The position numbers and the translations under genes were made by a program. From the UHGV virus genome UHGV-0152950: a stretch of DNA of 18,833 bases; one strand, given 5' to 3'. How positions within the stretch are numbered: position 1 is the stretch's first letter; the number at the start of each line of letters is the position of its first letter. The DNA is from a virus. This document shows, in pieces, positions 5,541-18,833 of the stretch. A model generated the notes under the pieces. It worked only from the letters and a program-made list of their open reading frames with translations, ran no database searches and was not told the origin of the DNA.

Positions 5541-6482
5541 TTAACTAACAATCCAGTCCATAGCAATAACATCCTCTGGAGCTAAATCAATAGCATGGAT
5601 TTTCCCGTCACGGATGGTGCGCCAGTGCTTTCGTGATCCACCTTCGGGCCACACCCATATACCTTCAGGCCAGGAAGAACGACGACACACTGTTGCGTAT
5701 CCAGTCCTGAGCTTCTCTCTGACGGTATGTAGTGACAGATTATCCTTTGGGCTTTCAGGCACAGGATGGTGGATTGCCTGAAACATCCCCATCTTTGGAT
5801 GATACCAGCGTTTATTGCGTGGTTCTGCCTCCGACATCACCTGCTTAAAGGCTTTCCGGAAGGGGGCCAGGGCCACAATGGAGCGTCGCGCAAGCAAACC
5901 ATCTGGAGTTAAAAACTCATGCGTATCGGTGGGAATCCGGAAAGCGTTAACCAGGTTGCGACATTTGGCTTCAGTCAGGCCACATTTCGCCGCCAGCTGG
6001 CGGTAGCCAATGTAGCCTTCCGGAATATTGCCTTTCTTTATTTGCTCGAGTGTTTCAGCGACCATCGATACTTGTGCTGATACCTCGGCTACCTGGGCAT
6101 TTACGGCGTTGATCCGGCGTTCATGCTCAAGATGCATTTGCGCCATTTCAGCCAGAATTTCGGCTTTTGATTTTAACTGTACCCGGGCATTCTCCAGTTC
6201 GCGCCAGCGGTCCACCAGCCGGGCGGTGAATTCCGGAGAGAGCTGCGCGACGACAATGATGCTGTCTCGTTTTCCTTGTTCGCCTTCAAAGATGTAAGCC
6301 TTGGAAAATCGACGAGGGCCAACTGATTGTTTATTTTCAATTTCCACAGATTGTGGAAATTGGATCACACTCTTTTTAGCCAGTGTTTCGATAGTTCTCT
6401 TCACACTATCTGGGCGACTTCCTACCAGTTCCGCGATCTCAATACTGGTCATTGTCGCTTTTTGAGAGATGGACAGATTCAT
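5541..6482 (-). CDS. ant: Phage antirepressor, Rha/Ant family
   Basis: 313 aa. N-terminal MTSIEIAELVGSRPDSVKRTIETLAKK resembles the Rha regulatory-protein domain. Its ATG overlaps the stop of the upstream Icd-like gene (ATGA), as in the P1 immI icd-ant arrangement. Confidence 0.75.
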   Translation of the reverse strand: MNLSISQKATMTSIEIAELVGSRPDSVKRTIETLAKKSVIQFPQSVEIENKQSVGPRRFSKAYIFEGEQGKRDSIIVVAQLSPEFTARLVDRWRELENARVQLKSKAEILAEMAQMHLEHERRINAVNAQVAEVSAQVSMVAETLEQIKKGNIPEGYIGYRQLAAKCGLTEAKCRNLVNAFRIPTDTHEFLTPDGLLARRSIVALAPFRKAFKQVMSEAEPRNKRWYHPKMGMFQAIHHPVPESPKDNLSLHTVREKLRTGYATVCRRSSWPEGIWVWPEGGSRKHWRTIRDGKIHAIDLAPEDVIAMDWIVS

Positions 6483-6697: not shown

Positions 6698-6754
6698 AAT
6701 GGCAGCCTCCTTTTGCTAATTTAAGGAGCTACCGCGTGAGGTTCCAATCTCAAT

Positions 6755-6835
6755 GGCGGTAGCACTGACTGGGTTGGAACTACCGGCGCAAAAGGGAACC
6801 GGCCTGCCTTTCGGCAGCCCAGCCAGCACTACCAT
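6755..6835 (-). ncRNA. Candidate C4-like antisense RNA (boundaries uncertain)
   Basis: Minus-strand hairpins GGCUGCC-GAAA-GGCAGGCC and GGUAG-(loop UUCCAACCCAGUCAGUG)-CUACC. The loop GUUCCAA is complementary to UUGGAAC upstream (about 6930) and just before the icd SD (about 6745). The RNA could instead be the 6883-6960 hairpin plus terminator. Confidence 0.3.
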
Positions 6836-6882
6836 TGATCTCTGAGCTAAACGCTACGTATGGCTGTGCGATGGCATGACAC

Positions 6883-6904
6883 AAAAAAAGACGCTTTCGG
6901 CGTC
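6883..6904 (-). terminator. Rho-independent terminator (minus strand)
   Basis: Hairpin gacgc tttcg gcgtc (6890-6904) followed on minus by a U7 run (plus A7 at 6883-6889). Confidence 0.5.
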
Positions 6905-7009
6905 TGTGTCGCCTTTTGCATTATCCGGGGTTCCAATCCCGGCACCCGTTTTTCTAAGGTGCCGTAGAAATATACCCCACGATAATGCCAGGGCGCAACA
7001 GTCAGTATT

Positions 7010-7508: not shown

Positions 7509-8087
7509 CTAATTTATCAATTCAATCGCCATCTGATACAACGCCATTTCATCGGCATTGTGCCGCATGAAATCTGCTTTTCCGCCTATTTTTCCGTCAG
7601 CATGAACAGGGACCAGCCAGGGATATTGTTCTCGGACCTCGGCTGGCGCTGCGTACTGGTGGTGCCATTTACACAAAGGGAGGACATATTTATGCGCGTT
7701 CTCTGCCGTTCTCCCGAAGATATGGTGCAGGGATACCACTGGGCTATGTTGCCCGTGAATATGGCAGGCAATGCAGGGGAGAGTACCGATAGCGGTCTGT
7801 ATCCGGCGTTCATCGGCTGTGAGTGATCTGCCCTTCAGGCCGCGTGACGTGCGTGTTTTTTTGGACGGAGTGGATACAGCTTTCTCTTTTCTCCGCTGGT
7901 CATATTGCTTTGCTTTTTCAATTCTCTTTTGCCGATATTCAGGCGATGCGGCTTTTTCTCTCGCTCGTTGCTGCTGGCGTTGAGCTTGTTGAAGGCGCTT
8001 TGCCCTTTGTTCCTCTCGCCAGGCTGGGTCAGCCAATTTTTGCATGGCTTTTTGTCTCTGTTTCTCCCAATAGCTCTGTTTCTGCAT
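7509..8087 (-). CDS. ref: Ref-like recombination enhancement function protein (HNH-type nuclease)
   Basis: 192 aa. Highly basic low-complexity N-terminus, then Cys/His core CIACHIHGQHSPVVSLHHIFGRTAENAHKYVLPLCKWHHQ typical of P1 Ref-family HNH proteins. Confidence 0.7.
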   Translation of the reverse strand: MQKQSYWEKQRQKAMQKLADPAWREEQRAKRLQQAQRQQQRAREKAASPEYRQKRIEKAKQYDQRRKEKAVSTPSKKTRTSRGLKGRSLTADERRIQTAIGTLPCIACHIHGQHSPVVSLHHIFGRTAENAHKYVLPLCKWHHQYAAPAEVREQYPWLVPVHADGKIGGKADFMRHNADEMALYQMAIELIN

Positions 8088-17704: not shown

Positions 17705-17971
17705 ATGTTGCATAGAGTTTTATGGAAAAGCGTTATTGTCGGCGCGATACTGGCTATATCTGGGTGTGCAATGGTGCAATACAACGACGGTGAAAAGGTA
17801 AGCATACAGTCAGATGGTTGGTATGGCCTGGATAGCCTGCAAAAAACCGCAGATAAAGCCTGTCAGCAATATGGGAAGTCTAAAGCAGTATATCAGCATA
17901 GCGCGAACGCTAACCCTCATCTAGCGCCCGGTTCTGGTGTTCAGAATACCATCTGGAAATGTGAGCCTTAA
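17705..17971 (+). CDS. Putative lipoprotein
   Basis: ATG 17705 (TTG at 17699 is in frame). N-terminus [21 protein letters not shown] has a lipobox-like ISGC. Confidence 0.65.
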
Positions 17972-17973
17972 AT

Positions 17974-18225
17974 ATGAGCGACTGGAATATTGCAGCTAAA
18001 AGTCAGGAAGAACGGGATAAGGTTAACGTTGATCTGGCTGCCAGCGGTGTGGCGTACAAAGAGCGATTGAACATACCTGTCATAGCTGAACAGGTAGCCC
18101 GCGAGCAACCAGAGAATCTGCGCGCCTATTTCATGGAACGGCTACGGCACTACCGGCAGTTAAGCCTCCAGTTGCCAAAAGGGAGCGATCCGGTGTATCA
18201 GAACGAGGATGCACCAAAAAAATAA
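17974..18225 (+). CDS. Hypothetical protein (83 aa)
   Basis: ATG 3 nt after the upstream stop; weak SD. Confidence 0.6.
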
Positions 18226-18310
18226 CGGCAAGATGGGGGAGAAATGTGATTAGCCCCCAGCGTGGCGCGCCTACAAACCCCGCTTTCACAAACTATGCCT
18301 TTTCAATGTA

Positions 18311-18330
18311 TACTGTATGAATAAACAGTA
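18311..18330 (+). promoter_or_regulatory. LexA (SOS) box
   Basis: TACTGTATGAATAAACAGTA matches CTGT-N8-ACAG with flanking TA/TA, 19 nt upstream of the UmuD'-like gene start. Confidence 0.8.
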
Positions 18331-18348
18331 TCATTGAGGTAAAACGCT

Positions 18349-18738
18349 ATGGGCTTCCCTTCTCCTGCGGCGGATTATGCAGAGAGCCGCATTTCTCTTG
18401 ATCAGCAACTAATCAGACATCCTTCCGCGACCTACTTCATGCGGGCGGCAGACAGCCATCACCGTGAGGGAATATTGCAAGGTGCTTTGCTGGTGGTTGA
18501 TTCCTCACTTACTCCGGTTGATGGTTCACTGCTTATATGCGCTATGGAGGGTGAATATCGCATAAAGAGATACAGGAAGTATCCGCGCCAGCACCTGGAG
18601 GATTTAAGCACCGGGAAGAAAGAGGCGTTACCAGTAGATGACGATGGATGCACGGGCAGTAATGCTGTGTTTGGTGTGATCACTCATGTCATTAATGATG
18701 CCCGAAGTGGGGAGTTTGATTATAGACCTGTGATTTAA
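18349..18738 (+). CDS. humD: UmuD'-like S24 peptidase-family protein (HumD-like, lacks the cleavable N-terminal arm of UmuD)
   Basis: [33 protein letters not shown]... aligns from memory with E. coli UmuD beginning at the post-cleavage Gly25 ([33 protein letters not shown]). No umuC-like gene follows. Confidence 0.8.
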   Translation: [129 protein letters not shown]

Positions 18739-18749
18739 GGCGCATAAAG

Positions 18750-18777
18750 AAGCCCGCCAGACCTGGCGGGCTTTTTG
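18750..18777 (+). terminator. Rho-independent terminator
   Basis: agcccgccag acc tggcgggct followed by TTTTT. Confidence 0.7.
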
Positions 18778-18833
18778 TTGATATCATTCAATGATTTTTT
18801 CGGCTGTCAGCCAGCTAATTTCGTGCCTGTCTT

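Follow-up and report, generated by a model that had tools for sequence, protein, structure and literature searches.

The window analysed here, UHGV virus genome UHGV-0152950 (18,833 nt, one strand), carries at positions 18311-18738 a LexA box followed by a short gene, a unit that its sequence identifies as humD from a P1/D6-like E. coli phage-plasmid. humD was reportedly characterised in phage P1 in 1999, by McLenigan and co-workers in J Bacteriol 181:7005, and the copy in the window is an ordinary member of that established P1 gene family; it is already annotated and holds nothing new. The original prediction, an SOS-regulated and naturally truncated UmuD' homologue without a umuC partner, is supported in every element, and its sole correction is that the family had already been characterised. 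The features of the unit and its immediate surroundings are the following:

18285-18314, + strand: predicted sigma-70 promoter, putatively that of humD (consensus scan)
18311-18330, no strand assigned: LexA (SOS) box TACTGTATGAATAAACAGTA, 20 bp, predicted operator (consensus match)
18336-18339, + strand: Shine-Dalgarno motif GAGG, 9 nt before the ATG, a plausible ribosome-binding site (read from the sequence)
18349-18738, + strand: humD coding sequence, 129 aa, pre-truncated UmuD' homologue (open reading frame, Pfam, NCBIfam, PDB alignment)
18747-18779, no strand assigned: predicted bidirectional intrinsic terminator between humD and the convergent gene (folding)
18784-18833, - strand: 3' end of the convergent gene (stop codon TGA at 18784-18786), context only and outside the humD unit

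Predicted control region and terminator of humD

The palindromic LexA consensus, with up to three mismatches allowed, has a single match in the 18.8-kb window, where 0.01 would be expected (200 shuffles). The core CTGT-N8-ACAG likewise occurs once, with 0.18 occurrences expected by chance. The box is identical in 17 of 20 bases to the E. coli umuDC operator TACTGTATATAAAAACAGTA, as read from MG1655. All seven relatives compared, among them P1, P7, D6, RCS47, 813R1 and Cyrano, have the two arms unchanged, even where the flanks diverge; in Cyrano the upstream flank is otherwise unrelated, yet the box arms and most of the stretch between box and start are conserved. The homologous 20-mer carries a LexA binding site annotation in the P1 and P7 records, and the P1 box differs from that of the window at two spacer positions.

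The gap between the box and the ATG at 18349 is 18 nt (TCATTGAGGTAAAACGCT), i.e. the last base of the box sits 19 nt before the A of the start codon, which agrees with the spacing of 19 nt originally given. The predicted promoter consists of a -35 element TTCACA (18285-18290), an 18-nt spacer and a -10 element TATACT (18309-18314). It scores 10 of 12 consensus positions, is the only site that the promoter scan returned on the + strand of 17900-18833, and lies in a region conserved in 813R1, RCS47, D6 and the plasmid NZ_CP069886.1. Its -10 element overlaps the left arm of the unique LexA box. Promoters repressed by LexA usually have the box in such a position. Between the GAGG and the start codon an in-frame TAA is found (18340-18342), three codons upstream of the ATG, so that the frame read upstream of the start meets a stop after two codons and no N-terminal arm, nor any extra N-terminal residues, can be encoded there.

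Downstream of humD, folding gives a hairpin at 18747-18776 with a 13-bp stem (18747-18759 / 18764-18776), a GC core and the loop GACC. It is followed by T5GTT on the + strand and by TTCTTTAT on the - strand, and its energy is -24.7 kcal/mol on the + strand (z -4.8) and -19.3 kcal/mol on the - strand (z -3.0). Since the convergent gene has its stop codon at 18784-18786, the hairpin would serve as a terminator for both genes. The terminator expected directly after humD is therefore present by folding, though a simple terminator scan of 17900-18833 listed none; the T run had probably been absorbed into the stem. In N15 and phiKO2, too, a terminator is annotated at this position, behind gene 26 and gene 23, respectively.

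In NZ_CP069886.1, a plasmid 99.8% identical over 18200-18833, the gene that ends there on the opposite strand encodes a 364-aa hypothetical protein (WP_097413599.1). There it is the first gene of a block that also contains dut and the genes of a DUF2829 protein and a tyrosine recombinase.

HumD and its relatives

The 129-aa product, identical to RefSeq WP_032342035.1 of plasmid NZ_CP069886.1, matches the NCBIfam equivalog NF051876 ("HumD family translesion DNA polymerase") with 209.4 bits (cutoff 120), its residues 1-129 covering all 129 positions of the model, and Pfam Peptidase_S24 (PF00717) with 35.1 bits against a gathering score of 23.3. The UmuD model (NF007621 / PRK10276) scores 86.8 bits, below its cutoff of 110, and with 25.8 bits the LexA model stays far under its own of 110.95. 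A LexA or phage CI-type repressor is ruled out by the length of 129 aa, the S24 domain from residue 1 and the lack of an N-terminal DNA-binding domain. An autoproteolytic subunit of the UmuD type was rejected as well: the protein has no arm with a Cys/Ala-Gly cleavage site and stays below the cutoff of the UmuD model, although the catalytic dyad is retained.

The solved structures that match best are those of UmuD' (1UMU, E 6e-23) and of Pol V with full-length UmuD (8GMT). Residue 1 of 1umu_A and Gly25 of the full-length UmuD chain 8gmt_B both pair with Gly2 of the window's protein, and the alignment with MG1655 UmuD agrees. The product was proposed to start at the equivalent of the UmuD cleavage site, to be checked by alignment with UmuD and P1 HumD, and in these alignments Gly2, directly after Met1, indeed corresponds to Gly25, the first residue of UmuD'. 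An AlphaFold2 model built from a 102-sequence family alignment, deep but undiverse (65-97% identity), is poor (mean pLDDT 51, pTM 0.38) and was not used; the sequence alone suffices to show homology to the solved UmuD' structures.

E. coli UmuD/UmuD' (b1183; 1UMU, 1I4V, 1AY9, 8GMT) thus shares with the HumD of the window the S24 fold, as judged by sequence similarity, the UmuD' N-terminus and the Ser-Lys positions, with about 43-45% identity over UmuD residues 25-139. In contrast, UmuD possesses a 24-residue arm, is cleaved at Cys24-Gly25 with the aid of the RecA filament and has a co-transcribed umuC, whereas the HumD of the window has neither arm nor umuC. UmuD also lacks the C-terminal tail of about 10 residues and a 4-residue insertion present in HumD, and its motif GDSM corresponds to ADSHH in HumD.

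The absence of a polymerase subunit gene, likewise part of the original prediction, holds beyond the window. A tblastn search with E. coli MG1655 UmuC had no hit below E = 2.2, either in the window or in the complete 91.6-kb plasmid NZ_CP069886.1, and the annotation of this near-identical plasmid lists neither umuC nor any other Y-family polymerase.

The closest characterised relative is P1 HumD (P1_gp103, YP_006569.1), with an equal length of 129 aa, 95% identity, an identical start and Ser and Lys at matching positions. The likeness to HumD that had been proposed is therefore one of orthology and goes beyond analogy. P1 has its LexA box in the same place (19 nt before the ATG vs 18 in the window), lacks umuC and has hot in the region, as does the window. 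It differs in a divergent 573-bp gene, lxr, which lies between hot and humD and shares the LexA site. The window has no lxr: homology to P1 breaks at 18229-18295, where an unrelated 67-bp spacer takes the place of 696 bp of P1, and neither lxr nor phd nor doc was found in the window or in the whole plasmid NZ_CP069886.1. Without lxr, the box of the window would serve humD alone and no divergent gene. This lxr-less arrangement of hot and humD is common to the window, 813R1 and RCS47. Downstream, humD is followed by phd-doc in P1, P7, RCS47 and 813R1 (in D6 after one extra ORF), but by the convergent 364-aa gene in the window. The P1 protein ends in EFDDCPVI and that of the window in EFDYRPVI. 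The differences between the window and P1 are thus those of context (lxr, phd-doc) and not of kind.

Further relatives were searched by tblastn of phage genomes, in which 81 records matched; six of these were examined (N15, phiKO2, HK639, yong1, pAEv1818 and Oslo). N15 gp26, phiKO2 Gp23, HK639 gp28 and the homologue of Hafnia phage yong1 have an upstream LexA-type box and start with M followed by GFPSPA; Aeromonas phage pAEv1818 has a LexA-type box and the variant start M-GMPKFASPA. The distance from box to start is 14-17 nt in N15, HK639 and yong1, and the box lies farther upstream in phiKO2 and pAEv1818. No umuC is annotated within 1.5 kb of these genes in N15, phiKO2, HK639, yong1 and pAEv1818. 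Phage Oslo, a umuC carrier, encodes a full-length UmuD with an arm (...FFSYLVPC|GFPSPA). Since the same three linked features recur in N15, phiKO2, HK639, yong1 and pAEv1818, the combination of SOS box, pre-truncation and orphan status is the signature of an established family and not a peculiarity of the window.

N15 gp26, phiKO2 Gp23, HK639 gp28 and their like are 62-67% identical to the HumD of the window, share the EFDDCPV tail and have a terminator straight after the gene. They differ in their backbones, which are unrelated and have the gene next to sopAB or integrase genes, where the tail-gene cluster ends, and in a Thr at the nucleophile position, where the HumD of the window has Ser. 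In phiKO2 the LexA site is common to the humD-like gene and a divergent dinI-like gene, which parallels the lxr-humD pair of P1.

In the protein database 514 clusters match HumD at E < 1e-5. The start MGFPSPA is present in 98 of the 103 full-size representatives among the 120 clusters listed. Comparison of humD with six relatives gives dN/dS values of 0.05-0.11 (dS up to 0.7), and the gene is under purifying selection. Database entries of 148-167 aa were considered as possible carriers of real arms or DNA-binding domains and rejected; they are start-codon over-extensions that translate promoter and operator, the added residues of one such entry including YLYCVFIRY. Many of these over-extended entries are named "LexA family transcriptional regulator". 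For some entries of the family this is a misnomer, given the 129 aa, the S24 domain from residue 1 and the low score with the LexA model.

The carrier element and neighbouring genes

Sequence comparison identifies the window as part of a P1/D6-like phage-plasmid. With phage D6 it shares 94% identity across 64% of its length, and with several E. coli plasmids of about 90 kb, classed as non-mobilizable, 95-97% across 82-89%. The humD region is 91-96% identical at the DNA level to those of P1, P7, RCS47, SJ46, 813R1 and D6, where the corresponding features are named humD, UmuD-like or HumD, and the 634-bp stretch 18200-18833 is matched by 641 plasmid records. Other features of the window are:

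5541-6482, - strand: Rha/Ant-like ORF, downstream of the C4 and isrK matches (sequence)
6752-6839, - strand: C4 antisense RNA (Rfam, 76.7 bits)
6884-6962, - strand: isrK (Rfam, 62.5 bits)
7509-8087, - strand: Ref-type RecA-dependent nuclease (Pfam RecA_dep_nuc, E 8.5e-35)
17974-18225, + strand: hot, Pol III theta homologue (Pfam DNA_pol3_theta, E 6e-34)

C4, isrK and the Rha/Ant-like ORF together form the immI-type immunity region known from P1-like phages. Ref, hot and humD are three genes of the window tied to the RecA/SOS or replication machinery of the host. A study of Ref included humD only as a control gene that C1 does not regulate, and contains no SOS data on it (PMC4713147). The hot-lxr-humD segment is reported to vary among P1-like phage-plasmids (PMC9603915).

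The gene hot lies directly upstream of humD in the window; in phage D6 it is annotated at only 147 bp. A database protein of 133 aa, named "DNA polymerase III subunit theta" and known from one contig, joins Hot residues 1-44 in frame to HumD residues 40-129 (junction ...VARE/GIL...), presumably the result of a deletion between short similar sequences.

Proposed role of HumD

The unit very probably delivers, under repression by LexA, a ready-made UmuD' that joins the UmuC and RecA of the host in a Pol V-like enzyme. This reading builds on what is observed here: the anatomy of the unit, its orthology, purifying selection, the conservation of the operator, and the absence of umuC from window and plasmid. 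In an undamaged lysogen, host LexA bound to the box over the -10 would keep humD off. Upon DNA damage, RecA-stimulated self-cleavage of LexA would free the promoter, and a monocistronic message would be made that ends at the hairpin just past the stop codon. The 129-aa product would start, after Met1, where RecA-mediated cleavage of UmuD yields UmuD', and so would need no post-translational activation. By analogy with P1 HumD, it would dimerise and join host UmuC and RecA filaments (RecA-ATP) to form a Pol V-like translesion polymerase, and the element would gain lesion bypass and SOS mutagenesis without a polymerase gene of its own.

The P1 literature is the source for LexA binding, dimerisation, binding of UmuC and RecA, and complementation of UmuD', all of which may be expected of the unit in the window as well. 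P1 HumD, the only member for which functional replacement of UmuD' is known, is said by McLenigan and co-workers (1999) to restore mutagenesis in recA430 lexA(Def) cells and to complement UmuD'. The same study reportedly found dimer formation by P1 HumD, binding to UmuC and to RecA filaments, and poor native expression. A secondary source describes P1 HumD as a replacement for UmuD' (PMC7092418), and humD is dispensable for lytic growth of P1 (PMC10695390). In the sequence data no evidence against this mechanism was found; the allele of the window carries a DC-to-YR change in a nearly invariant tail.

One alternative holds that HumD mainly modulates the host replisome or a DNA-damage checkpoint through contacts with Pol III, like UmuD/UmuD', possibly together with Hot. 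The position of hot directly upstream of humD in the window and beside the humD region in P1, RCS47, 813R1 and D6 would suit it, as would the Hot-HumD fusion and a conserved C-terminal tail that UmuD lacks and that suggests an extra partner. However, hot and humD are separate units, as P1 has hot under a late promoter and humD in a region of its own controlled by LexA, and no hot is annotated within 1.5 kb of the humD-like genes of N15, phiKO2, HK639, yong1 and pAEv1818. P1 HumD, moreover, reportedly complements UmuD' in mutagenesis, and we consider a mainly replisome-directed role unlikely.

The Ser-Lys dyad raises a second alternative, in which HumD is an active S24 serine protease acting in trans, e.g. 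on host UmuD or another LexA-like substrate, and not only a structural subunit. Ser36 (18454-18456) and Lys73 (18565-18567) of the window's protein correspond to Ser60 and Lys97 of UmuD, and of 102 close family members 59 carry Ser and 42 carry Thr at position 36, while 99 keep Lys73. The motif GDSM is, however, degraded to A-DSHH in the window, with a one-residue deletion, and the dyad is lost in the distant pre-truncated homologues of HK639 (Thr/Met), yong1 (Tyr/Arg) and pAEv1818 (Gln/Arg). Catalysis is therefore not a requirement of the family, and these sequences argue against proteolysis as its function; UmuD' itself has no need of the dyad and yet retains it. A protease role is thus very improbable. 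That the ORF is a pseudogene with a fossil operator, left by decay of a umuDC operon whose 5' end and umuC were lost, would account for the missing arm and partner but is refuted by the conservation data, i.e. the low dN/dS over a dS of up to 0.7 and the almost constant MGFPSPA start, besides an intact promoter, operator, Shine-Dalgarno motif and terminator, the 514 database clusters and a curated equivalog model.

Under the preferred reading, a ready-made UmuD' for the host's UmuC, humD would let temperate phages and phage-plasmids tap the SOS mutagenesis of the host with one small gene, skipping RecA-dependent activation. The copy in the window leaves the known picture of humD unchanged. The gene is common, judging by the plasmid records and protein clusters counted above, and bears on stress-induced mutagenesis in E. 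coli that carry P1-like phage-plasmids; resistance genes are present on some of these elements (PMC9603915).

The C-terminal tail of about 10 residues is present in 8 of 8 pre-truncated, umuC-less homologues compared and is nearly invariant among the 102 family members (consensus GEFDDCPVM). In the window the extension EFDDCPV[MI] is present as a variant, encoded by the last 10 codons (18706-18735): GEFDYRPVI keeps V and I and differs from the consensus by D125Y and C126R, and this variant is common to 3 database clusters. Aligned in register from the C-terminus, the HumD tail resembles the E. coli SSB tip MDFDDDIPF: both show Phe at -7, Asp at positions -6 and -5 and an acidic residue at -8, and both end in a hydrophobic residue. 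The HumD tail differs in Pro at -3 instead of -2 and in Met/Ile instead of Phe as last residue. The SSB tip is recognised through its last hydrophobic residue, the carboxylate of the latter and the run of Asp (PMC10164576). That the HumD tail mimics the SSB tip, docking on SSB-interacting proteins or competing with SSB at stalled forks, is a doubtful though conceivable reading of this resemblance; such mimicry, if true, would give HumD a function beyond plain replacement of UmuD'.
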